Assembly: GCA_014191855.1 (NCBI GenBank)
Contig: BJHF01000017.1
Coordinates: 5,255-69,254, forward strand
Length of the DNA stretch: 64,000 nucleotides
Source: Deltaproteobacteria bacterium
Lineage (GTDB): Bacteria > Myxococcota_A > UBA796 > SXON01
Direction of reading: 5' to 3'
Part shown: piece after piece, positions 1-52,769 of the stretch
Layout: the number at the start of each line of letters is the position of its first letter
How positions within the stretch are numbered: the stretch's first letter is position 1
Made by a program: the position numbers and the translations under genes
Notes under the pieces: model-generated
What the model was told of the DNA's origin: nothing
The model's database searches: none
What the model saw: the letters and a program-made list of their open reading frames with translations, nothing else

Positions 1-2698
1 CGCCCGCGGGGATGTCGAGCAGCGCGCCCGCGTGGGTCGCGGCTGGGGCCCAGAGGAAGGACTCGGCGAGGTCGAGGCTCACGTGCAGATCGTTGGGAAG
101 GTCCACGTCCATCTGGCCGACCGCACGAACGCCAAACCAGCCGCCAACGGCGATGTTCGCCGCGGTGCGCGCCTCGTCGGTGTACGTGAAGTAGGGCGCC
201 GACACCGACTGGATGTCGAGACCGCCGCCCACGCTGATGCTCTCCGCGACGGGGTGAAGGTAGCGCCCGCCGGCCGTGATGTCGCGGAGGAACACGAGGT
301 ACGCATCCCCATTGACGTCGTAGACATGGGCGGTGAACCGGCCGTTTGCGTCAAAGAGTACGCGCCCGGGGCCGACCGGGATGCCGTAGGTGCCGCCCAC
401 CGTGAGCCCCCAGAAGCCCGCGTCGGGGGCGACAAGGTCGGCGTCGGAGAGGCCTGCCCCGCCATCGGTGTGCTGCCCGTAGGGGCCGCGCAGGTTCACG
501 AGGGCGCCGCCGAAGCGACCCGGCGCGATGTCGCCGCCGTTATCGCGCGCGGGCCCGCTCTTCTTTGCGGAGCTTCCGCCGCCGCCGAAGCCGCCCCCGC
601 CGGCCGGAGTCTTGCTTTCGGCGGTGGTGGAGGCCGTGGACGACGTCTTCCCCGAGCCCACCTGTTCGAGGGTCGAGAGCTTCAAGCTGGTGATCGCGGT
701 GCCGGCCGCGACCGTGACCGTGATCGGCCCGTCCTGCCCCGGGGCGAGCTGGGCCGTGAAGCCGTAGTTGCCATCGCGCGTGTCGCGGATCGGGCCGATC
801 GAGGCGGGCGCGGCGCTGATCTGGAGCTTCTGGCCCGCGACGCCGACGCCGTTGTCGTCCGTGATGCGCACCTGCACGAGGATCGCAGCGCCCGGCGTGG
901 TGTAGCCGGGGGTGGCGCTGAGCTGCATGTCGGCGGGGGGGCCGCTCGGCGGGACCACGCCTTCGCGTACGATCGTGAGCGAAGGGGAGGCGTGCTGCCA
1001 ACGCTCGAGCGCCGCGAGGTGCGCGGGCCCGCCGCCGGGGGTCGGCGACACGAACATCTTCGGGCCGACCTGGAACATCGGCAGCTCGGTGGTGAGGCCG
1101 CCGGCCTCGACGCGCAGCGTTTGCAGTCCTGGCGTTGTGCCGGCGCGGTAGGTCGCGTGGGCCACCCCGCGCGCATCGGACTTCACCGACGGCGGGAGGC
1201 TGCCATCGCCCTGGGGCACCGCGAGCTTGAACTCGACGTTCGCGACGGGAAGATCGTAGGCATCCACCGCCACCAGGGTGAGGGCCGTGCCCTCGAGACC
1301 GTTCGCGCTCACGGTGGCCGAGCCGGTCCAGGCGAGGATGCGGGCGGGGGCGAGCGACGAGACGTCCATCGGCGGGGTCCCGAACACGCGGGCGCGCTCG
1401 GTCTTGCTCGTGCCGGAGACGCCGATGGTGTAGCTTCCATCCTTGTTATCGGTGAGCTTGCCGGAGGTGGAGGCGCCGTCGGCGACGAGGGCCGGCGAGC
1501 GCCCGGCGAGGGCTGTGCCGCCGGCATCCTTGAGCCGGGCCACGACCTTGACCGTGCCGCCGCCCTTGGGGAAGTCCGCGGGCTCGGCCGCGAGCGTCAT
1601 CGTGGGGAGCGGCGCCAGGATCCGCAGCTTGCGGCTCGCGATCAGGCCGTTCCATTGGGCGCCGAGGGTGACTTCCTGCGCGGTGGCGGGGGAGGTGAAC
1701 TGGGACACCATGACCTTGCCGTCGGGGCCGGCGGCGCTCACGGCACCGGCGGAGGCGGTGATCCTCAGGTCGGAGGCGGGCACCTGGTCACCGTTGGGGG
1801 CGAGGGCAACCACGCGAACGGGGAGGAGGCGCGTGGGGTCGGCGACGACGCTCGCTGGCATTGGCAGGAAAACGAGCTGCCCGACCTGGGGAACGCCGGG
1901 CATCGGAACTTCGCGCTCAACCCGGGAAGTATCGGCGTTCACGGTTTGCAGGCGCCCGACCGGGTTGCGCGGATCGAGATCGACCTCAAAACTGACCTTG
2001 TTCTTGCTGTCGGCCTTGAACGGACCGTACTGCTTGCCGCCGACGCTGAGCACGTTGTTGCTGCCCGAGGGCGCGTCGAGGCCAATGGTCTTGTGGAGGG
2101 TGACGGGGAGGCCGGCCAGCCCCTGGATGCTGGGCGCCGCCGCGTCTGCCGCCGTGATCGCGACCATGACCGGACCCGCCATCGTTTTCGGGGCGGTGTA
2201 CCGGGCGGAATAGGTGCCGTCGCCAAGCGGAATCGGGCTATCCACCGTGCCGACGCTGGCCGTGAGCACAAAGCGCCGTTGCGGGGTGGCTACGGGCGTG
2301 GTGCCGGTCGGCTTGAGCTTCACGGTGGCGCTGCCGCCGGCCGCGATGACCGGGGGATCGAAGGAGATGCCGACGTCCCCGGTGAAGGGCGGCGCCACGG
2401 GGATCTGCACCGTGTACTCGTCGGATTGCACCTGGATCGTGACCGGCAAGGACTTCGGTGCGCTCAGGCTCGGCGGCGCGTAGGTGAAGCTGACGATGCA
2501 ATCCGCGCCGGTGGCGACCGCAGTGACCTTCCCAGACTCGGCCTTCACCCGCGCCCGTGCATTCGCCGGGCACCGCTCTACGTAAACATGGACCTCCGAC
2601 GCCGTGACTCCGTCTGCCGGGAGGGGAGCGGTGCCGACGAGCAGGGCTCCGGCGAGGGCGGGCGCGACGAGGGAGACGAGCGCAAACAAAAGGGTCAC
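1..2698 (-). CDS. Secreted protein with bacterial Ig-like repeats and a C-terminal beta-barrel-like region (3' end runs off the window)
   Basis: Absent from the ORF track because it has no stop in the window. My translation of the minus strand from GTG 2698 (GAGG 8 nt upstream) gives VTLLFALVSLVAPALAGALLVGTAP (signal peptide). Repeated Ig-like segments follow (GKVTAVATGADCIVSFTY, GSATVKLKPTGT, GTVKVVARLKDAGGTALAG...DNKDGSYTIGVSG). Then come a Gly-rich linker and an alternating-hydrophobic tail (YFTYTDEARTAANIAVGGWFGVRAVGQMDVDL). The + ORF 32..2818 is its same-phase antisense shadow. Confidence 0.7.
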   Translation of the reverse strand, partial: MTLLFALVSLVAPALAGALLVGTAPLPADGVTASEVHVYVERCPANARARVKAESGKVTAVATGADCIVSFTYAPPSLSAPKSLPVTIQVQSDEYTVQIPVAPPFTGDVGISFDPPVIAAGGSATVKLKPTGTTPVATPQRRFVLTASVGTVDSPIPLGDGTYSARYTAPKTMAGPVMVAITAADAAAPSIQGLAGLPVTLHKTIGLDAPSGSNNVLSVGGKQYGPFKADSKNKVSFEVDLDPRNPVGRLQTVNADTSRVEREVPMPGVPQVGQLVFLPMPASVVADPTRLLPVRVVALAPNGDQVPASDLRITASAGAVSAAGPDGKVMVSQFTSPATAQEVTLGAQWNGLIASRKLRILAPLPTMTLAAEPADFPKGGGTVKVVARLKDAGGTALAGRSPALVADGASTSGKLTDNKDGSYTIGVSGTSKTERARVFGTPPMDVSSLAPARILAWTGSATVSANGLEGTALTLVAVDAYDLPVANVEFKLAVPQGDGSLPPSVKSDARGVAHATYRAGTTPGLQTLRVEAGGLTTELPMFQVGPKMFVSPTPGGGPAHLAALERWQHASPSLTIVREGVVPPSGPPADMQLSATPGYTTPGAAILVQVRITDDNGVGVAGQKLQISAAPASIGPIRDTRDGNYGFTAQLAPGQDGPITVTVAAGTAITSLKLSTLEQVGSGKTSSTASTTAESKTPAGGGGFGGGGSSAKKSGPARDNGGDIAPGRFGGALVNLRGPYGQHTDGGAGLSDADLVAPDAGFWGLTVGGTYGIPVGPGRVLFDANGRFTAHVYDVNGDAYLVFLRDITAGGRYLHPVAESISVGGGLDIQSVSAPYFTYTDEARTAANIAVGGWFGVRAVGQMDVDLPNDLHVSLDLAESFLWAPAATHAGALLDIPAG

Positions 2699-2833
2699 AC
2701 CAACCTCGTGGGGGAGCGGGGAGCCCGGACTGGGCACGGGCAATGTACCGCGATGGCGACCGCGATGCGCAGCGGAGCCCGCCTGACAAAGGTCGGCGGG
2801 CCGCGCGCATCGCCCTGAACGGCCGTTTGCGGA

Positions 2834-3628
2834 CTAAAGCAGGTCCAACGCCTCGTCGGAGTTGGCGCCGCTCATGATGGTCTTGATCTTCACGCCGCGG
2901 TCGATCACCACCGTGAACGGAAGACCCACGGAGCCGCCCGAATCCGCCGCGTACTGCCACATGATCTCGCCGCTCGGATCGCTCAGGACGGGCATCGTGA
3001 GGCCGTAGTTGTCGGCCCAGTCTTCCAGCCCCGACTGCTTCATCGGGCGCCCCTGCGCGTCTTCAATCATGACTTCGAGCACCATCAGCCCGTCGTCCTT
3101 GTTCTTCTTGTAGAGCGTTTCGAGGCCCCCGGCCTCGCTTTGGCACGCGCCTCACCACACGGCCGCGAAGACCATGTACACCACGTTCTCGCAGAACGCG
3201 TGCAGCTCCACTTCTTCACCAAACTGGTCTTCCATGTTGAAGTTATCGCTGATGTCCCGCTCGGAGAAGCCCTCACCCTGGACGTCGTTCCGGCAGGCGC
3301 CGATCGGCCAGCCGCCCTCGTAGGGGTGGTCTGAAGCCTTGTTTGGGTCGGTGTTGCCCTCCACCTCGTCGGGGTCGTCGAACCCATCGCCGTCGCTGTC
3401 GGCTTTGTCGGGATCGGTGCCGAGATCGTCCTCTTCGGCGTTGGTGAGGCCGTCGCCATCCGAGTCCGTCTTCGCGGGATCTTCTTCCTCTTCGCCGCTC
3501 CCGGTGTCGTCCCCGAGGCCGAGGAAGCCGCCGCCACCTCCACCGTTCTCCGCGGTGTCGGCCCCTACGCCTGCGCAGCCCAGCAGAAAGATGCCCCCGA
3601 AGAGCACCGTGATCGGGAGCGCCTTCAC
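2834..3628 (-). CDS. Thioredoxin-fold (TlpA/redoxin-like) lipoprotein, predicted selenoprotein with U-G-A-C motif (in-frame TGA at 3152-3154 read as Sec)
   Basis: Track pieces 3152..3628 and 2834..3085 share one frame (795 nt total). The upstream piece ends VVYMVFAAVW-TGA. Read-through gives W-U-GAC-QSEAGGLETLYKKNKDDGLMVLEV, which places the TGA at the first Cys of a WCxxC motif. The Cys paralogue at 60155..60718 reads TIWCSPCQAMAAGLQ. Other features are the lipobox LLGC and TSP3 repeats (DSDGDGLTNAEEDDLGTDPDKADSDGDG). The GTG start overlaps the upstream stop (GTGA). Confidence 0.75.
3121..3137 (-). promoter_or_regulatory. Candidate bacterial SECIS hairpin for the TGA at 3152-3154
   Basis: In mRNA sense the hairpin is CGAGGCC-GGG-GGCCUCG, beginning 14 nt after the UGA. 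The 21-nt block AGCGAGGCCGGGGGCCUCGAA (3119-3139) is identical to 3910-3930 in the paralogue. Flanking codons differ between the copies, including at synonymous sites. Confidence 0.6.
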
Positions 3629-4317
3629 AGCAGACCGACCGCTTTGTCGACTTGCGTGCCGCTGTTGATGCTGTCGATCACCACGCCACGGTCGATCACG
3701 ACGGTGAATGGCAGGCCCACGCTGCCGTCAAAGCCGGCCGCGTACTTCCACATCAGCGCGCTCTCCGGATCGGCGACGACGGGCATGGTGAGCCCGAATT
3801 CGTCTGCCCAATCCTGCAGATCGGACTGACCGGCCGCCGAGCCGTCGTCGATCTCGGTGATCGCCTCTACGACCATGAGGCCGTTGTCCTTGTTGTCCTG
3901 GTAGATGGCTTCGAGGCCCCCGGCCTCGCTTACGCAGCTGCCTCACCAGAAGGCGGCGAAGACCAGGTATACGACCTTGTCGCAGAAGCTGTAGAGGTGC
4001 ACGTTCTGGCCGTTCTGGTCGGCCAACGCGAAGTCTTCGGAGACGTCGCCTTCAGCGAGGCCTTCCCCGGTGATGTCGTTGTGGCAGGAGCCGATCTCCC
4101 AGCCGCCCTTGTAGGGGTACTCGGCCCCATCGAGCGGATCGGTGTTTGCGGCGAGCTCGGCGCCGTCGCTCGCGCCGTCTCCATCGCTGTCGTCTTTGTC
4201 GGGGTTGGTGCCGAGATCGGCCTCTTCGCTGCCAAGCAAACCGTCGGCGTCGGCATCGACGTCGACGTTCACTTCGGCCGCGCAGCCGACGAACGAGAGA
4301 GTGAGCAGGAGAGTCAT
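3625..4317 (-). CDS. Thioredoxin-fold lipoprotein, predicted selenoprotein with U-G-S-C motif (in-frame TGA at 3943-3945 read as Sec)
   Basis: Track pieces 3943..4317 and 3625..3876 share one frame (693 nt). The sequence reads DKVVYLVFAAFW-TGA-GSCVSEAGGLEAIYQDNKDNGLMVVEA...GLPFTVVIDRGVVIDSI. The lipobox is FVGC, and TSP3-type acidic repeats are present (DADADGLLGSEEADLGTNPDKDDSDGDG). It is a paralogue of 2834..3628. Confidence 0.75.
3912..3928 (-). promoter_or_regulatory. Candidate bacterial SECIS hairpin for the TGA at 3943-3945
   Basis: The hairpin CGAGGCC-GGG-GGCCUCG is the same as at 3121-3137 and has the same 14-nt spacing from the UGA. Confidence 0.6.
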
Positions 4318-4386
4318 GGTCAGCCTCCGGACGCGGGAGAGTGTACCATAACCAGCACCCAGCGGATCGGATATGTGCGTGAAACG

Positions 4387-4746
4387 ATGCGTTCACGAGA
4401 GGCCGCCCAGCGCGTTCGACACGACCTCGGCAAGTACGTTCACCTCGAAGCGCGGTGGCTGGGGGAAGATGCGTTAGAGGCGGATTATCGCGATGCGCTC
4501 CGCACTGACCTGCTCCGTACTCGCCGCGGGCCGGAAGGTGACGTGGACTGCGTGACCGTGTGGGCTGGCCTGCGGCCCTCCGTCGAAGGTTTTGACACGC
4601 GTGAGGTGGACCACCTCGTGGGCAGCCTCGGCGCCCGGATGCACTCGCTCGATCTGCTCGGCATGGTTGCGCTCCGCGCGCTCGCCCACGACGCCTACAC
4701 CCTCGGCGAAGCCTGTCGCCGGCTCGCGGAGCAGGCGGAGGATTAG
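4387..4746 (+). CDS. Hypothetical protein (119 aa), probably co-transcribed with the sigma-54 activator
   Basis: Only the 3' part of ORF 3652..4746 looks like real coding sequence (MRSREAAQRVRHDLGKYVHLEARWLGEDALEADYRDALRTDLL...). The 5' part is antisense to the selenoprotein genes. ATG is at 4387, with an alternative GTG at 4375. The stop lies 2 nt before the next gene. Confidence 0.5.
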   Translation: MRSREAAQRVRHDLGKYVHLEARWLGEDALEADYRDALRTDLLRTRRGPEGDVDCVTVWAGLRPSVEGFDTREVDHLVGSLGARMHSLDLLGMVALRALAHDAYTLGEACRRLAEQAED

Positions 4747-4748
4747 GC

Positions 4749-6365
4749 ATGGCCACCGTGCTGGTGATCGACGACCAGGATCGGTACGCGGCCTTGTGCC
4801 GAAAGGCGATTCCAGGCCACGAATATCTCGGTCCGGCGCGGAGTTGGCGGGAGGCGGAGGAGGTGCTGCGGGCGCGGCGTCGCGACATCGACGTGGTGCT
4901 GCTCGACGTTCACTTCGAGATCCCTGAGTCGGACCTCGTCGGGCTGCCGCCGGGCGCGGATGCGAAGGCGGTCGCGCGGGTGCGGCGTCGTCAGGGGCTG
5001 GAGATCCTCGCACGGCTCCGACGCCGCTTGCCCGACCTGCCCGTGGTGCTGATGACCAGCCGCAACGAGGTGGCGCTGGAGAAGGTTCCGGAGCGGCTCG
5101 GGGCCGAAGAATACACCTACTTCCTGGATGATGACTACGTCGATGCGCGCTCGTTGCGGGTGCAGATCGAGAACGTTTTGTCCGCCCGGCGGGGCCGGGA
5201 GTCGGAGGGGCCCGTGTTCTGGGGGCGGTCCACGCCGATGCGGAAGCTACGCGCGCGGCTGCACGTGCTCGCGAAGGGGCGTTTGCCGGTGATCCTGGGC
5301 GGGCCGACCGGGACCGGGAAGTCGCTCATCGCCCGTCATGTGGTGCATGCGCGCTCCGGGCGAAAAGGGAAGTTCGTTCCTGTGGACTTGAGCACGCTCC
5401 CCCGCGATCTGGTCGCGGCTCAGCTTTTCGGCGCGGTGCGCGGCGCCTATACCGGCAGCGTGGCCGACCGAAAGGGGGCGTTCGAAGAGGCGGACGGCGG
5501 CACGCTGTTCCTAGACGAGATCGGGAACCTGCCCGAAGAAGTGCAGAAGATGCTGCTCACCGTGCTGCAGGAGGGGGTGCTCACTCGCATCGGCGACACG
5601 GTGGAGCGGCGGGTGGACGTGAAGATTGTGGTGGCGACGCACGAGGACCTGCCCGCGATGGTGCGCGCCGGCCGGTTCCGCGCCGACCTCTACATGCGCC
5701 TGAATCCAGCTTGCACCGTGATCCTACCCTCGTTGGTGGAGCGCCGCGGGGACTTCAGCCGGCTGTTGGAGTGGAGCACGCTCCGCGCGGTGGAATCTCC
5801 GGCGTTGAGCAGCCTGGTGCTGGAGTATCGGGAGCAGGCGGGCCTGGGCCCGGGGAGCCCCACGCGGATCGCGGGCGACGTAGCGGTGGGCCTGTCCGGA
5901 GAGGTGCCGGCCGCAGTGGCGGGGCAGCTCCTGTTGATGTTTCCTGAGCGCACCCAGCGTTTGCTGCGCCGCCATCGATGGTCGGGAAATCTTCGGGAGT
6001 TCTCGATGGTTATCGAGAATGCCCTCACCTTTACCTTTGCGGAGTTGGCGGCGCTGCCGGGAGGTGGGCGGGCGGACCTGGTGCAGGTGCGACCGAAGCT
6101 GGTGCAGGACCTGCTCCGCGCGGTGCGGGTGGATCGGCCCTCGGCGGAGGACGGATGGCGCTGCGAGATCGTCGTGCGCCCCGACCCCACGCTAAACCAC
6201 CTCGCCCAGGACGTTGAACGCCAGTATTTTACGCGCCTCTGGGAGCAGGAGGACGGGGACTTTGGCGCGATGGCGCGGATCCTGGTGGGCGACGACACGG
6301 CGGCGCGGAAGGTGCAGCTTCGATTCAATCAACTGGGGTTGAAGGTGCGGGAGATGAAGAAGTAG
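4749..6365 (+). CDS. Sigma-54-dependent transcriptional activator with N-terminal receiver domain (NtrC family)
   Basis: Receiver domain VLVIDDQD...[12 protein letters not shown]+ core with Walker A ([14 protein letters not shown]) and Walker B ([12 protein letters not shown]), plus [11 protein letters not shown]. The GAFTGA loop appears as GAYTGS. Confidence 0.9.
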
Positions 6366-8508: not shown

Positions 8509-10911
8509 ATGCGGTTGTTCGCGCTCTCGCCCCTGTTCACCCTGCTCGCGGCCTGTGACACCGGCGGCTTCACCCCGGAAGAGCGCCGCGAAGACACTGC
8601 AGACACGGCTGACTCCGGCGATACGGGCTTTGATCCGGGGGATGACACCGTCGGCCCCGCGCTGCCCGACTGCACGGCGACGACCGGTGACGGCGACTAC
8701 GTTGCGCTCTCGGGGGTGGTGTTGTTGCCCGATGGCGCAACGGCCGGCGTCGTCGTGTACCAACGGAGCACCGGCCTCGTCACCTGTGCTGGGGCAACGT
8801 GCGATACCTCCCGGGCGAGCGTCGTGTGCACCGAGGGCGTGATCAGCCCGGGGTTGATCGATCCGCACAACCACCTCCAGTACAATTCCCTGCCCCGTTG
8901 GGAGGTCCCCGCCGAGTTTGAGGACCGCTACGACTGGCAGGGCGATGATCGCTACGACGACTTCAAGGATGCCTACAACGACATCGAAGACGCCTACAAC
9001 TGTGAGATCATGAAGTGGGCGGAAGCCCGCGAAATCGTTCACGGAACTACCTCGGCGGTGGGCAGCTCCGGGAGCGGGTGTATCGACCGCGGCGTGCGGA
9101 ACCTCGATGAAGACGCGGACGCCAGCCACCTCGAGTCGTACGACCTCTCCTACAGCTCCGGCAACGTGGACAGCTCCATCGAGGACGGAGACGGTCAATA
9201 CTACAATGATAAGCTGGCTTCCGGCAGCCTCGACGCGGTCATGAATCATGTCGCCGAGGGTCGGGACGGCAACGTGCAGGGCGAGATCGACACGATGCTC
9301 GACGCCGGGATGACCGGCCCAGGGCAGGTTTATGTGCATGCAACGGACGCTTCGACGGAGCAGCTCGCGCAGCTCGGCGCCACGCAGACGGGGATCGTGT
9401 GGTCCCCGCGCAGCAACCTCGTCTTGTACGCGACGACGACGCCGATCGAGATTGCCGATAACCTGGGTGTGCCCTGGGCGATCGGCAGCGACTGGACGCC
9501 GAGCGGCAGCATTGGGCAGCCGGCTGAGCTGGCCTGTGCCGAAGCGTGGCTGGCGGGGAAGGGGAGCCCGTTCTCGGACGTAGACCTGTGGCGAAAAGCG
9601 ACCGAAGACGCGGCGAGGTTGGTCGGTGCCGACGGCGTGCTCGGCGTGCTCACCCCCGGCGGCGCCGCCGACATCGCCGTGTTCGACTACAGCCCGACGC
9701 CGTACCGAGCGATCATTGGCGCGGATGAGGCGTCCGTACGGCTCGTAGTGGTGGCCGGGGAAGCGGTGTACGGGCGGACGGCTCTGGTGGAGCCGCTCGC
9801 GGAGAACGTAGCTTGGTGCGATACGATCGACGCGTGCGGGGAGTCGCGCAGCTACTGCCTCAAGGATGGAGAGAGCGGCGACAACGCCGACACGCTCGCC
9901 GAGGTGGAAGCCACCCTTGAAGCCGCACTTTCGGCGCACTCCATGCCGTCCGGCTACGAGTACGCCGGGGAGCTGTTTGGCCTGTACGCGTGCGCGGACG
10001 AGCGGAGCATCTGCGACTTGCGCGAGCCCGCGAGCGGCGATGACGACGGCGACGGCGTGGCCGACAGCGGCGACGTATGCGCGGGGATCTACGACCCGAA
10101 TCAGTGGGACACGGACGGGGACGGGCTCGGCGATAGTTGCGACGAATGCCCGATGGTTCCCGGCACGGACTGCGAGCTGGACGTGAACGACGTGGACGGC
10201 GATGGTACGGCGGATGACGTGGACAACTGCCCTGGCGTCAACAACGATCAGACGGACACCGATGGCGACGGCGCGGGGGACGCGTGCGACGCCTGCCCGG
10301 ACGAGCCCAACCCCGACGGCGGCGGCTGCACCGCCACCGTGTACGACCTGCGTACTGGCGTTTTCCCTGACCTGTCGCCGGTTTCCATCGAGGGCGTGGT
10401 CGTTACCGCGATTCGCGCGGGGGCGGGCTTCTTCGTACAGGTTCCGGGCGCGACGGAGTACGGCGGCATCTACGTGTACGACGGCGGCGACAACGTCGTG
10501 AGCGTGGGCGACCTTGTCACGGTTTCCGGCACGTACACCGAGTACTACGAGATGTCCGAGTTGACGGACGCGACCGCGACGATCACCGGCGTTGGCGAGG
10601 TGCCGGCGCCGCTGGCCCTCGACACCTGCGCGGTCGCCGCCAACGCGGAGCCGACGGAGAGCATGCTCGTGACCTTCAGCAACGCTCGCGTGACGGACGA
10701 GAACGCCGACGCGGACGCCGGTGTGGACACGCCGGACTACGATGAGTACGTCGTGGACGAGTGTCTCCGCGTGGACGACTTCCTCGACGAAACCCTCGAT
10801 CAGCCCGCGCAGGACACGCTGTTCAACACGTTGACTGGCGTGATGATCTATAGCTTCGACAACGTGAAGTTGGCCCCTCGCGGGACTTCGGACCTTGAGG
10901 TGGCGATCTGA
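8509..10911 (+). CDS. Amidohydrolase-family lipoprotein with TSP3 Ca-binding repeats and a C-terminal OB-like domain
   Basis: The real start is ATG 8509 inside ORF 7741..10911 (MRLFALSPLFTLLAAC lipobox). Metal-binding motif PGLIDPHNHLQYN. TSP3 repeats DDDGDGVADSGDVC...WDTDGDGLGDSCDECP...DVDGDGTADDVDNCPGVNNDQTDTDGDGAGDACDACP. Confidence 0.8.
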   Translation: MRLFALSPLFTLLAACDTGGFTPEERREDTADTADSGDTGFDPGDDTVGPALPDCTATTGDGDYVALSGVVLLPDGATAGVVVYQRSTGLVTCAGATCDTSRASVVCTEGVISPGLIDPHNHLQYNSLPRWEVPAEFEDRYDWQGDDRYDDFKDAYNDIEDAYNCEIMKWAEAREIVHGTTSAVGSSGSGCIDRGVRNLDEDADASHLESYDLSYSSGNVDSSIEDGDGQYYNDKLASGSLDAVMNHVAEGRDGNVQGEIDTMLDAGMTGPGQVYVHATDASTEQLAQLGATQTGIVWSPRSNLVLYATTTPIEIADNLGVPWAIGSDWTPSGSIGQPAELACAEAWLAGKGSPFSDVDLWRKATEDAARLVGADGVLGVLTPGGAADIAVFDYSPTPYRAIIGADEASVRLVVVAGEAVYGRTALVEPLAENVAWCDTIDACGESRSYCLKDGESGDNADTLAEVEATLEAALSAHSMPSGYEYAGELFGLYACADERSICDLREPASGDDDGDGVADSGDVCAGIYDPNQWDTDGDGLGDSCDECPMVPGTDCELDVNDVDGDGTADDVDNCPGVNNDQTDTDGDGAGDACDACPDEPNPDGGGCTATVYDLRTGVFPDLSPVSIEGVVVTAIRAGAGFFVQVPGATEYGGIYVYDGGDNVVSVGDLVTVSGTYTEYYEMSELTDATATITGVGEVPAPLALDTCAVAANAEPTESMLVTFSNARVTDENADADAGVDTPDYDEYVVDECLRVDDFLDETLDQPAQDTLFNTLTGVMIYSFDNVKLAPRGTSDLEVAI

Positions 10912-21425: not shown

Positions 21426-22163
21426 TCACCCGAATTCGCAAACAAACCCGACGCCGTAGACGTCACTGCAGCCGGCATCGTTCCACGCCCCGCTTGGGAG
21501 CTGCTCAAGGCAATCTTCGCCGCCGTTGGTGTCGTTGGGCTCGCCGCCGGCCCACTTGGTCTCGGCCACGGCTTCCCCGGTGATCCAGACCCACTGGCCC
21601 TCCGCACCCCCATCGCAAGCGCCGAGATGGGCGTGCGCCACAAGGCCAAAGAGGAACACCCCCTCGTCCTCGTCTGAGACTGTGGCGAGGAAGCCACCGG
21701 CCGAGCGGCATGTCGCTCTAGCATCCACCCAGGAGTAATCGGCTTTGGAGGGCCAGTAGCAGCTCGATCCGTGGGAGGTAAACCCAGCGGCGCCTTCGCA
21801 GAGTCCCGACCAGGCGGGCACGGTATCGTGGTTCTCGCCCACAAGCCCGGAGCACGCGAAGGGGTCGTCGGCCGGATCTCCGGGGACACCCGTTTCGTCG
21901 GCGTCGGAATCCTCGCCGAAGGCGGTATCGCGGTCCGCCGAATCCGTTTCGCCGCTGTCGTCACCTCCCCCGCGGCCGCTGTCGTGCCCGACCTCGCTTG
22001 CGGAAGGGTCGAAGCCCGGAACGGGCCGCTCGGACGGGCCTGTCGCGCGGCAGGCGACAGCCAATAGCAGAACACCCGGCGTGGTCCACCTCCGGTCCCC
22101 GAGGGGAAACGATGGCTGCATCTTGCACTTCACCCGATCCGCTATGTCGACGGCGCTCGCCAT
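21426..22163 (-). CDS. C-type lectin domain lipoprotein (EPN...WND carbohydrate-binding motifs)
   Basis: The C-terminus reads WVWITGEAVAETKWAGGEPNDTNGGEDCLEQLPSGAWNDAGCSDVYGVGFVCE. Also present are WVDARATCRSAGGFLATV and the lipobox LAVAC. The likelier start is ATG 22121 (MQPSFPLGDRRWTTPGVLLLAVAC). Confidence 0.8.
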   Translation of the reverse strand: MASAVDIADRVKCKMQPSFPLGDRRWTTPGVLLLAVACRATGPSERPVPGFDPSASEVGHDSGRGGGDDSGETDSADRDTAFGEDSDADETGVPGDPADDPFACSGLVGENHDTVPAWSGLCEGAAGFTSHGSSCYWPSKADYSWVDARATCRSAGGFLATVSDEDEGVFLFGLVAHAHLGACDGGAEGQWVWITGEAVAETKWAGGEPNDTNGGEDCLEQLPSGAWNDAGCSDVYGVGFVCEFG

Positions 22164-22232
22164 GCCAAACGCGTCTAAGCCCCCCTCCCTGTTTCCCTCC
22201 GTGTCCTCCCCGCCCTCCGTGGTGCACCTCTG

Positions 22233-22340
22233 CTCTCCCTCTCCCTCTCCCTCTCCCTCTCCCTTTGCGTCTTAGCGGCTTTGCGTGAACCTTTCTCCCT
22301 CTGCTCTCCCTCTCCCTCTTCTCTCCCTCTTCGCTCCCTT
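22233..22340. repeat. (CTCTCC)n microsatellite tracts flanking copy 3 of the CACGCAAAG motif
   Basis: Five perfect CTCTCC units lie at 22233-22262. The inverted motif ccctttgcgtcttagcggctttgcgtgaacc follows at 22261-22291. An imperfect CT-rich tract runs to ~22340. The whole region is intergenic. Confidence 0.8.
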
Positions 22341-23637
22341 ACCATTGCCCCACATGTGCATCCATCCAAATCAGCCGCTCGTGCAACCAAGCCCGCACAT
22401 GCGCGTCCTCCTCGTCGTAGCTGCTCACCGGGTAGAAGTAGTTGCCATACCCGATCTCCCCGATGGGCCAACGCTCCAGGTTCCGCCCCAACGCTTCCCC
22501 CATCGTCGCCTGCATCGTATCGATCCGGGAAAACACCGCATCCTCGGCCAACACCCCTTTCCGCAGCTCCGCCCACCGCGCCGCCATTCGCGTGTGCGTT
22601 TCCGCCGCGCTCCCCGGCAACGCGAACAGCTCCGGTCGGTAGTCGATCCACGTGTCCGTCGTGCCGTAATCCTCGTAGTTCGCCAGGTTCCCATACCCCA
22701 TGTCAAGATCCCACGGCGTGAACTGCAGCAGCCCGTCGTGGTCCTTCCACGAATGCAGGCTCGTCCAACAGAAGTCCTCGTTCTTCACCAGCTCTTCGAG
22801 TAACAGCACGTCGATGAAGCTGTCCTCGTCGAGGTACGCCCACGCCCCGTTTGCGTCACTCGGGTCACCCCGCCGCACCGCATCTTCCATCTCCGCCAAC
22901 CACCCCGCCGCCCCCGCGCTCGACTCCGCCGTGATGGTCGATTCGTTTGGATACACCAGCTTCCAGCACCCGTGTGTCGTCTGGTTCATATAGAAACACT
23001 CGTCGTCGTCCTGCTTGAGCACCATGGAGAGCCCGTCTCCGGGATCGGGATCAATGTCAATTCGATCGCCGTCGCGTTTGATCCGCTCTTGGAGCAGGTA
23101 GATCCCTTCATAGTCGCCATTGAGCGTGAGCTCGCAGTACCGACTCTCCGGAGCGTAGCGGACGCCCCCGCCGAACGAGCGGAACAGGTCGTAGCCGAGC
23201 TTGTTTCTCACGAGCGATCGGTCGTACCAGTTGCCGTTCACGATCCAGTCGCTCTCGTCCCCCATCCCCAGAAGATCGGCGTTCGTGTCCGTCCCGAGCT
23301 CGTCGTGAAGCTCCACACCATACTGATGTTTTTCGATGTACCGCGAGCTGCGGCCGCGCTGCCACACCCTCGCCAACCCGTCGTATTGTACCTCCCCCGG
23401 CTCCGTTGTCACCGAAAACGTACACTCAGTCTGTGCCCCGTCCCCGATGACCGTGGCGCACTCCAACGCAAGCTGACACAGTTGGCCGTCGTAGTCCGGC
23501 GCGGGAGGCTGCTCCGCCGCGGGGAGCGGTTCGGCCTCCTCGGCCCCGTCAACCGCCTGGTCGCCGCCCCCCGACGACGCTGGTTCCGACTCCCGAATGC
23601 ACGCCAGCAGCGACAGCCCGAAGCTCAGAGCCCCCAC
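22339..23637 (-). CDS. CotH-family (atypical kinase) lipoprotein
   Basis: The real start is probably GTG 23637 (VGALSFGLSLLAC) inside ORF 22339..24036, overlapping the upstream stop. The body reads YGVELHDELG...DRSLVRNKLGYDLFRSFG...YCELTLNGDYEGIYLLQERIKRD...LLLEELVKNEDF...FTPWDLDMGYG. Confidence 0.75.
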   Translation of the reverse strand: MGALSFGLSLLACIRESEPASSGGGDQAVDGAEEAEPLPAAEQPPAPDYDGQLCQLALECATVIGDGAQTECTFSVTTEPGEVQYDGLARVWQRGRSSRYIEKHQYGVELHDELGTDTNADLLGMGDESDWIVNGNWYDRSLVRNKLGYDLFRSFGGGVRYAPESRYCELTLNGDYEGIYLLQERIKRDGDRIDIDPDPGDGLSMVLKQDDDECFYMNQTTHGCWKLVYPNESTITAESSAGAAGWLAEMEDAVRRGDPSDANGAWAYLDEDSFIDVLLLEELVKNEDFCWTSLHSWKDHDGLLQFTPWDLDMGYGNLANYEDYGTTDTWIDYRPELFALPGSAAETHTRMAARWAELRKGVLAEDAVFSRIDTMQATMGEALGRNLERWPIGEIGYGNYFYPVSSYDEEDAHVRAWLHERLIWMDAHVGQW

Positions 23638-24932
23638 GTTGCTCGCACCTGAGCGTCGCGACCGCTGATCCAGGACCGCATGTAGTCCTGCGTGGACCAA
23701 ACGCTGCTCGTGCCGCACTCGCGGCGGGGATCGTCGGAGGCGTCGTCGTGGGTGAGCTCTGCCATCGCGTCGAAATAGGTGCGGAGCGCGTCGGGATCGA
23801 CACCGGCGAGCATGGTGTCCACCGCCGCCACCTGGGCCTCGCGGCAGCTTGCGTCGAGGAAACATCGTGAGGCCAGGGTGCCGAGCGGCCCTGTCCAACC
23901 CACACCCCAGCCGCCGTCGGACAAGAACCCGTAGTCGAAGTCGGTGGGCAGGTAGATCATCTTCCCGTCGGAAGGGCGGAAGTACACGCGGTAGTTGTTC
24001 TTGTTCATCTGGTAGCCGTCGAGGTGGCCGACCCACTGCTCAACCGCCCAGGAGGTGTGCCACTGGTTCCAGTCCACCAGCGGGTCCATGACCTCTACGA
24101 AGCCGCCGCCCCGCGGTGCGCCGTCGATGGCGTCGCTGATCGCGGCGATGTCGGCGTGGCCGACGTCCGTGCCTTCTTCGAGTCCGAACATGTCGTCCAC
24201 GCCGGAATCAAAATCGAGCAAGGTGTAGGAGCCGAAGTCCCAGTTGTAGATGTATTTCCCGTCGTAGAGGTTGCCTTCGTCGTCCCCCGGGAACCGGTCC
24301 TCGAGGAGCTGGGAGTCGGGCACCTCGATGATGACGTAGAGCCCGTACACCTCGTCGTTCACGCGCACCCGCGCGAAGCTGGTTCGGGACGCGGCGATGC
24401 CCGCTTCGCGGAACACTTTGTAGGCGAGCGGCTCACGGAGGTAGGAGCAGTCCACCACCTCGTTGTTGAGCGCCATCGAATGCAGGCCGTGGAACTTCTG
24501 GCCGGCCACGAATTGGCTCATGTCGATCTTGAACTTGGGCTTACCAGAGATCTCCCGGTAGGAGCCGATCTTCCCTCGCAGGCGGAGGCCTATGCCGGTG
24601 ATCGTTTCGCCATCCACCGTCACGTCGCCCATCACGTAGGTGTGCCCGTCGCGACGGATATCATGGTAGGCGTCGTCGCTCAGGGTGATGTCGATGTCGT
24701 GAATCATCGTGTCGACGAAGAACTCGTCTTGCCAGGCGGCGTTCGCGGCCGTGTCTTCGACCTCCTCGCCCGTGTCGGTGTCCTCGCTCGTGTCTCCAGG
24801 GAGGGCGTCGGTGCCGGTGTCCCCCTGCACCGCCGGCGCGTTGGAGTCCTCCTCTCCGCCACCCACGTTGATGGTCTGGGTGCCGTCGCACGCGATGATC
24901 AGCAGGGCGACGAGCGGGAGTGTGCGGTACAT
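23625..24932 (-). CDS. CotH-family (atypical kinase) lipoprotein
   Basis: The start is likely ATG 24932 (MYRTLPLVALLIIAC). The body reads GIGLRLRGKIGSYREISGKPKFKIDM...SMALNNEVVDCSYLREPLAYKVFREAG...VRVNDEVYGLYVIIEVPD...YLPTDFDYGF. Confidence 0.8.
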   Translation of the reverse strand: MYRTLPLVALLIIACDGTQTINVGGGEEDSNAPAVQGDTGTDALPGDTSEDTDTGEEVEDTAANAAWQDEFFVDTMIHDIDITLSDDAYHDIRRDGHTYVMGDVTVDGETITGIGLRLRGKIGSYREISGKPKFKIDMSQFVAGQKFHGLHSMALNNEVVDCSYLREPLAYKVFREAGIAASRTSFARVRVNDEVYGLYVIIEVPDSQLLEDRFPGDDEGNLYDGKYIYNWDFGSYTLLDFDSGVDDMFGLEEGTDVGHADIAAISDAIDGAPRGGGFVEVMDPLVDWNQWHTSWAVEQWVGHLDGYQMNKNNYRVYFRPSDGKMIYLPTDFDYGFLSDGGWGVGWTGPLGTLASRCFLDASCREAQVAAVDTMLAGVDPDALRTYFDAMAELTHDDASDDPRRECGTSSVWSTQDYMRSWISGRDAQVRATWGL

Positions 24933-25000
24933 CGCCGCGAGCTTACCCGAAGCCGCGGCGGTTCGCACGGGCGCGCTCGCAGGGAGTTAACCGCGCCGCC

Positions 25001-50152: not shown

Positions 50153-50350
50153 GCAACCGATTTCGACCTACTCGCGGGAGTAGCCTCACCTCGGTTGAAC
50201 CTGGCAACCGATCTCGACCTACTCGCGGGAGTAGGGTCACCTCGGTTGAACCTGGCAACCGATCTCGACCTACTCGCGGGAGTAGGGTCACCTCGGTTGA
50301 ACCTGGCAACCGATCTCGACCTACTCGCGGGAGTAGGGTCACCTCGGTTG
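50153..50350 (+). repeat. Array A: four tandem 51-bp hairpin repeats without spacers
   Basis: The unit is gcaaccgatctcgacctactcgcgggagtagggtcacctcggttgaacctg, at 50153, 50204, 50255 and 50306. Units 2 and 3 are identical full 51-bp copies. Unit 4 matches them over 45 nt and lacks the linker, and unit 1 has 3 substitutions. Each unit folds as CAACCGA / internal loop / CCTACTC-gcgg-GAGTAGG / TCGGTTG. The linker aacctgg is invariant. Confidence 0.9.
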
Positions 50351-52532: not shown

Positions 52533-52769
52533 TCACCAGCGCTGCACGCCCAACTTACCCACAGGGCACGCGAGGATTCGTCCCAGGCCGCCGCGCCGGG
52601 CGCGCATCACCGTGGCCTTGAGCTTGGCCTGGTCCAACGGCCCGAAGCTGGTGACAAACACACACGGCAGCGCCTCCGCGAAGCCCAGGTCGCGCAGCGC
52701 CCTACTCACGCGCTCGGCGACGGCCCGCGGCGCAATGTCAACCGCGACCACCCACTCGGACTTCACCAC
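52533..52769 (-). CDS. cas2: Cas2-like protein (78 aa)
   Basis: The GTG start overlaps the RT-Cas1 stop (GTGGTGA). The beta-alpha-beta-beta-alpha-beta pattern reads WVVAVDIA / RAVAERVSRALRDLGF / ALPCVFVTSF / LDQAKLKATVMRA / LGRILACPVG, with Asp in the first strand as in Cas2. The protein is short and divergent. Confidence 0.65.
   Translation of the reverse strand: MVKSEWVVAVDIAPRAVAERVSRALRDLGFAEALPCVFVTSFGPLDQAKLKATVMRARRGGLGRILACPVGKLGVQRW

Follow-up and report, generated by a model that had tools for sequence, protein, structure and literature searches.

Tandem thioredoxin-fold lipoprotein genes with in-frame TGA codons, predicted to encode UxxC selenoproteins, in a deltaproteobacterial metagenome-assembled genome

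Two overlapping genes with a single internal TGA each

The DNA analysed here (the window) is a 64,000-nucleotide stretch of contig BJHF01000017.1, from a metagenome-assembled genome of a deltaproteobacterium (assembly GCA_014191855.1). Its minus strand carries two overlapping genes, termed A and B, each of which is predicted to encode a lipoprotein with a thioredoxin-fold domain and contains exactly one internal stop codon, a TGA, in the contexts FAAFW*GSCVSEAGGLE (gene A) and FAAVW*GACQSEAGGLE (gene B). The position of these codons, their conservation among homologues and the hairpin that follows each of them indicate that both genes very probably encode UxxC selenoproteins, in which the internal UGA would be decoded as selenocysteine (Sec, U). 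The features of the locus, and the paralogue with which it was compared, are the following.

4317..3625, minus strand: gene A, a read-through open reading frame (ORF) of 230 codons with an ATG start; predicted lipoprotein signal, TSP3 region and ResA/TlpA-like thioredoxin-fold domain with U-G-S-C
3628..2834, minus strand: gene B, a read-through ORF of 264 codons with a GTG start; architecture as in gene A, with U-G-A-C
3625..3628, minus strand: GTGA overlap of the gene A TGA stop and the gene B GTG start, from the sequence; boundaries called alike on independent assemblies
4282..4317, minus strand: gene A predicted signal peptide and lipobox, MTLLLTLSFVGC, by inspection; Cys at least 90% conserved in the family alignment
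3575..3628, minus strand: gene B predicted signal peptide and lipobox, MKALPITVLFGGIFLLGC, by inspection; LGC consensus conserved in 43 homologues
4120..4263, minus strand: gene A acidic, predicted Ca-binding TSP3-type repeats, residues ~19-66; Pfam TSP3_bac at 2.8e-08 over residues 43-63, with invariant D-x-D-x-D-G columns
3335..3490, minus strand: gene B predicted Ca-binding TSP3-type repeats, residues ~47-98; Pfam TSP3_bac, two stretches
3943..3945, minus strand: gene A in-frame TGA, predicted Sec codon 125 (FAAFW-U-GSC), from translation and homologues
3152..3154, minus strand: gene B in-frame TGA, predicted Sec codon 159 (FAAVW-U-GAC), from translation; aligned to the first Cys of the paralogue's WCSPC
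3912..3928, minus strand: gene A hairpin resembling a selenocysteine insertion sequence (SECIS), CGAGGCC-GGG-GGCCUCG, 14 nt after the TGA, from sequence and family comparison
3121..3137, minus strand: gene B SECIS-like hairpin CGAGGCC-GGG-GGCCUCG, 14 nt after the TGA, from sequence and family comparison
60155..60718, plus strand: Cys-type paralogue, a predicted lipoprotein with WCSPC, used for the Sec/Cys comparison (translation, Pfam, BLASTP)

A GGAGG Shine-Dalgarno sequence lies 7 nt upstream of the gene A ATG, and from the 4-nt overlap between the two genes we infer that their translation is coupled. By inspection, both predicted signal peptides end in lipobox-like sequences (FVGC in gene A, LLGC in gene B), although the n-region of gene A has no basic residue. 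The lipobox Cys is kept in at least 90% of the sequences of a 43-member alignment, which comprises genes A and B and the N-terminal fragments of Sec-type relatives. Around its predicted Sec codon, gene B reads VFAAVW-U-GACQSEAGGLETLYK.

Gene finders split both genes at the TGA, calling ORFs of 124 and 158 aa before it and 83-aa ORFs after it; the latter start with ATG at 2834-3085 and 3625-3876, and one of them has a weak AhpC-TSA match. The N-terminal piece of gene B is entered in GenBank as 'hypothetical protein LBMAG42_16110', from a Lake Biwa metagenome-assembled genome. Because identical truncated products are found on independent ENA and Logan assemblies, from three different runs, the TGAs are not assembly errors. 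A first-pass annotation of this DNA had described two genes interrupted by a TGA with their halves in frame, overlapping by GTGA and both encoding TSP3 Ca-binding repeats, and had expected automated annotation to split them. The read-through frames of 230 and 264 codons, the overlap at 3625-3628, the TSP3_bac matches in both products and the split calls bear out this description.

With the TGA read as Cys, the gene A product matches Pfam AhpC-TSA at 7.7e-15 over residues 91-214, a segment that spans the TGA, as well as Redoxin and TSP3_bac; the gene B product matches AhpC-TSA (9.8e-17, residues 129-249), Redoxin (5.8e-12) and TSP3_bac (3.2e-09). The AhpC-TSA (PF00578) matches of both lie above the gathering score. 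A phmmer search of PDB sequences returned ResA (E ~1e-7), pneumococcal surface lipoprotein thioredoxins and StoA, with E values from ~1e-7 to 1e-4, and placed the TGA on the first active-site Cys. In the AlphaFold (AF2) model of P0005, a Cys homologue with 47% identity (predicted local distance difference test score 95), the corresponding WCGAC lies where a strand ends and a long helix begins, and the best Foldseek matches of this model are ResA, DsbE, Etrx2 and Mycobacterium DsbE/F, with target template-modelling scores of ~0.8. These comparisons show the architecture and fold of the predicted products, which would be exported, lipidated, Ca-binding and redox-active. Two further Cys of gene B, C112 (~3293-3295, in ...GGWxIGxC...) and C146 (~3191-3193, in ...LHxFC...), are invariant in the 43 aligned sequences, and a structural disulfide between this N-terminal-extension pair is possible.

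Like ResA, TlpA, DsbE (CcmG) and pneumococcal Etrx, the window proteins have a motif at the WCxxC position, at the start of helix alpha-1, and are predicted to be membrane-anchored or lipoproteins and extracytoplasmic; those proteins are Cys-type, whereas the window proteins are predicted to contain Sec, and the relation holds at superfamily level only. All NCBIfam scores are below the cut-offs of the corresponding models: 49-51 against 170 bits for ResA, 27-32 against 230 for TlpA and 24-29 against 210 for StoA. The same applies to two thioredoxin-fold selenoprotein families of TlpA/redoxin type, NF041054 (ResA-like WAxxUGC, WAxxUGC_long; 19.2 against 300 bits) and NF053656 (redoxin_TUGYCR; 16.6 against 100 bits), whose motifs are U-G-C and T-U-G-Y-C-R, whereas that of the window proteins is W-U-G-x-C (UxxC). 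Since these scores fall so far short, the window proteins are not orthologues of ResA, TlpA or StoA and represent a separate branch of the TlpA-like superfamily. Cytochrome-maturation, CcdA/DsbD and Msr genes were not seen among the 40 window ORFs scanned.

Conservation of the TGA codon and of a downstream hairpin

The Cys-type paralogue at 60155-60718 reads MWLSLLTGC...TIWCSPCQAMAAGLQ, including ...TIWCSPCQ.... In a BLASTP alignment over 118 aa it shares 32% identity with gene B (E 3e-19), without gaps at the site, and the TGA is set opposite the first Cys of WCSPC. Of 311 homologues obtained in a protein search, the best 120 were inspected; ~44 of these are fragments of 147-234 aa that share the endpoint ...FCDxxVxLVxAAFW, and the full-length proteins among them carry WCGPC where the fragments end. 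DNA was taken for 80 metagenomic loci found with an alignment of the stretch that immediately precedes the TGA. A profile scan of genome contigs with a TSP3-centred pattern, which recovered mostly unrelated TSP3 proteins, added a few more loci, only L003-L007 being relevant. Across the homologous genes taken as DNA, the aligned codon is TGA in 79, TGC or TGT in ~16, a His or Glu codon in 3, and TAA or TAG in none. The TGA thus pairs with the first Cys of WCxxC in ~16 genes, ~70 database proteins and the window paralogue. BLASTP and the family alignments therefore agree with the earlier claim that the TGA falls exactly on the first Cys of the CxxC motif.

Downstream of the TGA the frame remains open for 96-112 codons to the homologous C-terminus in all cases except one spurious pattern match, and homologues that do not reach the C-terminus are those whose contig ends first. 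The motif varies within the family (UGAC, UGSC, USAC, UGGC, UGPC, UPGC, UTGC, UKGC and UDGC), and only one of the TGA genes examined lacks the second, resolving Cys. Tandem Sec-Sec pairs like A and B occur in at least eight other loci. In the single exception to the resolving Cys (L155, match at 3125-3562; VACAFW-U-GPNN), a Cys lies four residues before U. In the three genes with His or Glu at the Sec/Cys position (L114, L143 and L144), a Cys is shifted 3-4 residues upstream (GCTSWHPVC, PCARWHPVC and GCAGWEGSC).

These data bear on two readings in which the TGA acts as a stop. If the genes were pseudogenes, the TGA would be a nonsense mutation that terminates translation and the downstream halves decaying remnants, a reading that agrees with the truncated products given by gene callers and GenBank and with the lack of visible Sec machinery within the window. 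The codon, however, is TGA and never TAA or TAG in 79 diverged homologues, it is kept in both tandem paralogues and in the tandem pairs of other loci, and the intact downstream frame reaches the homologous C-terminus, with no frameshifts or stops in close relatives. Moreover, the ratio of nonsynonymous to synonymous substitution rates (dN/dS) between A and B is similar on both sides of the codon and not higher downstream (0.43) than upstream (0.53). Only the A-versus-B and A-versus-L084 comparisons were used for this measure, as ungapped NG86 estimates against distant homologues were ~1, which we attribute to saturation or misregistration. The comparative data effectively refute the pseudogene reading, which retains a negligible probability, and the strain-specific nonsense mutation named in the first-pass annotation as the finding that would speak against Sec is not what the diverse clade shows, with its 79 TGA codons, ~16 Cys codons and no other stop.

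Alternatively, the TGA could end an N-terminal TSP3 lipoprotein, with a separate C-terminal polypeptide made from an internal ATG, as the 83-aa ATG-initiated ORFs called after each TGA and the weak AhpC-TSA match of one of them would allow. Such an arrangement would separate strand beta-1 of the thioredoxin fold from the active-site helix, and would leave untranslated the 21 codons between TGA and ATG, which are conserved at the protein level and include the resolving Cys. Full-length Cys homologues, in addition, are single chains, and many relatives lack a Met at the equivalent position. Genome-wide reassignment of TGA was also considered and is ruled out because TGA serves as an ordinary stop in the window, where it ends 18 of 32 genes, gene A included. 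Together, the codon, frame and dN/dS data therefore exclude strain-specific nonsense, pseudogenes and genome-wide reassignment, and make two separate polypeptides very unlikely.

The hairpin CGAGGCC-GGG-GGCCUCG reported by the first-pass annotation is present 14 nt after each TGA. It lies inside a block that is indeed identical between the two copies, although this block measures 22 nt (3119-3140 and 3910-3931) and not 21 nt. The claim of RNA-level constraint that had been built on the two copies holds, but on other grounds: the two-copy argument is weak alone, because the SEAGGLE peptide and a GC-rich codon bias already yield a comparably stable hairpin, whereas many homologues, their synonymous sites and covariation support selection on the RNA. 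Generic folding energetics being uninformative at 68% G+C, position-specific, covariation and synonymous-site tests were used instead. Rfam gives no match at the gathering threshold anywhere in the window.

Of 72 distinct Sec genes, 55 form a perfect stem of 6 bp or more whose loop begins 18-40 nt downstream of the U of UGA, against 13.5% at other codons, and a stem of at least 7 bp at the SECIS position is found in 40 of 72, against 4.7% at other codons of the same genes, an enrichment over background of 5- to 12-fold. The loops are GGU, GGA, GGC, GGG, GUC or GUU, nearly all of them beginning with G. At least five different stems occur within the family, with loop starts 20-32 nt from the U of UGA, and are listed here by class, stem-loop and distance of the loop start from that U.

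SEAGGLE class: CGAGGCC-GGN-GGCCUCG, 24 nt
APELEAL class: CAGAGCU-GGA-AGCUCUG, 32 nt
APGWG class: GCCCCA-GGU-UGGGGC, 27 nt
EAP class: GCGGA-GGC-UCCGC, 20 nt
ASGLEA class: GCCUCC-GGUCU-GGAGGC, 27-28 nt

The stem of the sister subclade (APELEAL) thus differs from that of the window and is placed 8 nt further downstream. Across the 19 sequences of this class the 7-bp helix is 97% paired, with double-sided changes in five of the seven pairs; its covariation score is 0.48 versus 0.11, a value reached in none of 500 shuffles, and slid registers give pairing in only 32-49% of cells. In the class of the window genes (24 sequences), the stem codons are restricted well beyond their usage elsewhere in these genes: GAG in 24 of 24 (0.73 elsewhere), GCC in 23 of 24 (0.51), GGC in 20 of 20 (0.59) and CTC in 24 of 24 (0.54), whereas the Gly codon of the loop is free (GGT in 12, GGG in 7 and GGC in 5). 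Under synonymous resampling the 7-bp stem would be retained at an expected frequency of 0.14, and it is observed in 19 of 24 sequences, the outer six pairs being present in all 24. These results support RNA-level selection on the putative SECIS. The Glu codon directly 3' of the stem (3119-3121 and 3910-3912) is GAA in 17 of 21 cases, compared with 27% of Glu codons elsewhere, an excess that suggests a preference for A after the stem.

The minimal SECIS element of fdhF comprises 17 nt, 11 nt after the UGA; the window stem-loop likewise spans 17 nt and lies 14 nt after the UGA. As in the E. coli fdhF-type element, the hairpin follows the UGA closely within the coding sequence and has a small apical loop containing G, but the two stems differ in sequence, a bulged U is not obvious here, and the loop is GGN rather than GU-containing. 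Its geometry fits the features for SECIS recognition given in the Sargasso Sea selenoproteome paper, namely a stem-loop immediately 3' of the UGA whose small apical loop contains G (PMC1088965). The selenoprotein criteria in the same source, a Sec/Cys pair, two or more sequences with a conserved TGA and a small-loop hairpin with G, correspond to what is found here (PMC1088965).

Decoding machinery, predicted function and relation to known selenoproteins

In three relatives, selB resides on the same contig as Sec-type homologues. A tblastn search with E. coli SelB returned two matching loci, which Pfam confirmed. Contig PJEL010000034.1 encodes a 618-aa SelB with GTP_EFTU, Beta-barrel_SelB, WHD_2nd_SelB and WHD_3rd_SelB domains ~2 kb from the Sec-type gene, and on a 638-kb contig a Sec-type homologue and SelB are ~110 kb apart. 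The SelB proteins closest to these carry Myxococcota, Myxococcales or Deltaproteobacteria labels. We found no SelA or SelD (tblastn, E. coli queries) in 1.2 Mb of homologue flanks, no tRNA-Sec (ARAGORN) in any homologue locus examined, and no entry traceable to LBMAG42 among the 120 best SelB relatives, where the one candidate (P0196) came from another sample. In the marine APGWG/APVWG subclade (L163, 6167-8023 on the minus strand and 10001-10831 on the plus strand; L126, 125-1615 on the minus strand), selB is located ~2 kb upstream of the Sec-type gene. This proximity hints that the protein could be a principal reason for which the Sec trait is kept in that subclade.

Several observations weigh against the selenoprotein interpretation. 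SelA, SelB and SelD domains are absent from the 40 window ORFs scanned, and ARAGORN finds no tRNA gene in the 64 kb. The homologues are phylogenetically related, so that their counts overstate the number of independent events. With z-scores of -1.1 and -0.1, folding of the 60 nt downstream of the TGA is unexceptional at the prevailing G+C content, and the best hairpin anywhere in these 60 nt, compared with synonymous-codon resampling, has a mean z of -0.46 in Sec genes (-0.09 in Cys genes). The window class of stems is nearly invariant, with a single covarying pair (C-G to G-C, in SEAGSLQ variants).

The same machinery data bear on a further alternative, in which the UGA is read through without Sec, either by a near-cognate tRNA that inserts Cys, Trp or Arg or, when selenium is scarce, by SelB delivering Cys-tRNA(Sec), to give a full-length protein that is CxxC-like or inactive. 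Misincorporation of Cys at UGA Sec codons under selenium limitation is known in other systems, and Sec machinery was seen on contigs of relatives and not in the window. Leaky read-through, however, would leave unexplained a conserved, covarying hairpin at SECIS distance, selB is present on the same contigs in relatives, and lineages with Cys at this position use TGC or TGT. We regard read-through of this kind as improbable, if somewhat less so than the division into two polypeptides, and decoding of both UGAs as Sec as very likely.

Under Sec decoding, the mRNA hairpin, with its 7-bp G+C-rich stem and GGG loop, would recruit SelB-GTP-Sec-tRNA(Sec) while the ribosome is on the UGA, and Sec insertion would replace termination. 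The product would consist of a cleavable signal ending in a predicted lipidated Cys, an acidic Ca-binding TSP3 tether, which may keep the catalytic domain away from the membrane, and a ResA/TlpA/DsbE-like domain with U-x-x-C, in which Sec would be the exposed N-terminal nucleophile at the start of helix alpha-1. Such a protein could act outside the cytoplasm as a thiol:disulfide reductase, and possibly as a thiol peroxidase. The substrate, a disulfide, sulfenate or peroxide, would be attacked by the selenolate, the xxC cysteine would then resolve the selenenyl-sulfide so formed, and re-reduction might proceed via a membrane relay of CcdA/DsbD type.

UxxC thioredoxin-fold thiol oxidoreductases make up the majority of predicted bacterial selenoproteins (PMC13188914, PMC9312934, PMC1088965). 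Two families from the prokaryotic selenoproteome lists in these sources, dating from 2004-2005, resemble the window genes. The 'Prx-like thiol:disulfide oxidoreductase' family (PF00578, UxxC/UxxU) is credited to Kryukov & Gladyshev 2004 (PMC13188914 Table 1, PMC9312934), and the 'thiol-disulfide isomerase-like protein' (TlpA-like cd02966, UxxC) was represented in 2005 by only four sequences of the Sargasso Sea selenoproteome, no domain architecture being given for them in the text consulted (PMC1088965). PMC13188914 names WP_010940744.1 as type member of the Prx-like family and MGB1650493.1 as that of the isomerase-like family. The window genes carry both defining features of these families, an AhpC-TSA/TlpA-like domain and a UxxC motif, and are likened to them by domain and motif. 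They share with the Prx-like family the AhpC-TSA domain, UxxC with predicted Sec for the first Cys, Cys homologues, a coding-region hairpin and a frequent occurrence in Deltaproteobacteria-type lineages, but add a predicted lipoprotein signal, a TSP3 tether of 50-90 aa, an N-terminal extension with two extra near-invariant Cys and the tandem Sec pair. With the thiol-disulfide isomerase-like family they have in common the TlpA-like fold, UxxC and an aquatic-metagenome origin, marine samples being the source of many relatives of genes A and B; the window clade may well be that family.

UxxC Prx-like/TlpA-like selenoproteins are therefore a kind known since 2004-2005, of which the window genes are one more case. 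Particular to them seem to be the lipoprotein-TSP3 architecture, the tandem Sec pair and the size of a clade without a matching NCBIfam model, which comprises at least 79 genes from freshwater and marine metagenomes, with associated SelB labelled Myxococcota. That this is a distinct, large and uncatalogued clade of surface lipoproteins, frequently in tandem, in which Ca-binding TSP3 repeats tether a TlpA-like UxxC domain, is a tentative proposal that we consider rather doubtful. If true, the SECIS would have been rebuilt several times within it, and the clade would offer a natural series for following the co-evolution of SECIS position and sequence with the encoded peptide.

Reading the genes as selenoproteins restores two complete predicted exported redox enzymes from what is annotated as fragments and marks the organism as a probable selenium user; dozens of homologues are fragmented in the same way in public databases, as entries of 147-190 aa labelled 'hypothetical protein'. 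The value of this reading is mainly one of annotation correction; it leaves current understanding unchanged and would not surprise a specialist. It does add predicted lipid-anchored surface proteins, tethered by Ca-binding repeats, to the architectures in which Sec takes the place of the attacking Cys of a thioredoxin fold, and the family offers a compact example of a putative SECIS hairpin that moves and changes sequence within a coding region while its structure is kept.

Neighbouring genes and other features of the window

The genes next to A and B encode an invasin/Big_1 surface protein, a sigma-54 activator, a CarboxypepD_reg lipoprotein and an amidohydrolase-TSP3 lipoprotein; they shed no light on function and are not shared by relatives. 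Despite the divergent sigma-54 activator gene, no sigma-54 promoter within two mismatches was found upstream of gene A, near 4318-4748, and neither a sigma-70-like promoter nor a convincing terminator was identified in 2500-4800. The Invasin_D3/Big_1 surface-protein ORF (2-2833, minus strand) continues in the same frame directly after the TAG stop of gene B and runs off the start of the window; its true start is probably ~130 nt further on, at the signal-peptide-like VTLLFALVSLVAPALA.

Two associations with other thiol-redox genes were observed. The Cys-type lipoprotein gene at 60155-60718 (plus strand) has as its divergent neighbour a GCS2-family glutamate-cysteine ligase gene (58796-~60170, minus strand; 3.5e-56), both being thiol-redox genes. 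On the 638-kb contig, a methionine sulfoxide reductase A gene (PMSR; L165, 13852-14379) lies 3.4 kb downstream of the Sec-type homologue, an adjacency that recalls the pneumococcal Etrx-MsrAB pairing and is absent from the window and from L163.

Elsewhere in the window, a gene at 52766-56311 (minus strand) encodes a 1182-aa reverse transcriptase-Cas1 fusion (RVT_1 4.8e-32, Cas_Cas1 2.8e-55). It is flanked by head-to-tail arrays of a 51-nt unit at 50153-50350 (3.9 copies) and 57297-57442 (2.9 copies), with a 95-97% match. The unit is a nested palindrome with fold z-scores of -3.3 to -5.8 and no Rfam match, and the outer stem differs between the two arrays by changes that look compensatory. Because the units are nested palindromes only ~6 nt apart, these arrays are not ordinary spacer-bearing clustered regularly interspaced short palindromic repeats (CRISPR). 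Two adjacent CotH-kinase-domain proteins and a C-type lectin-domain protein are encoded at 22342-24039, 23628-24986 and 21429-22271, all on the minus strand.

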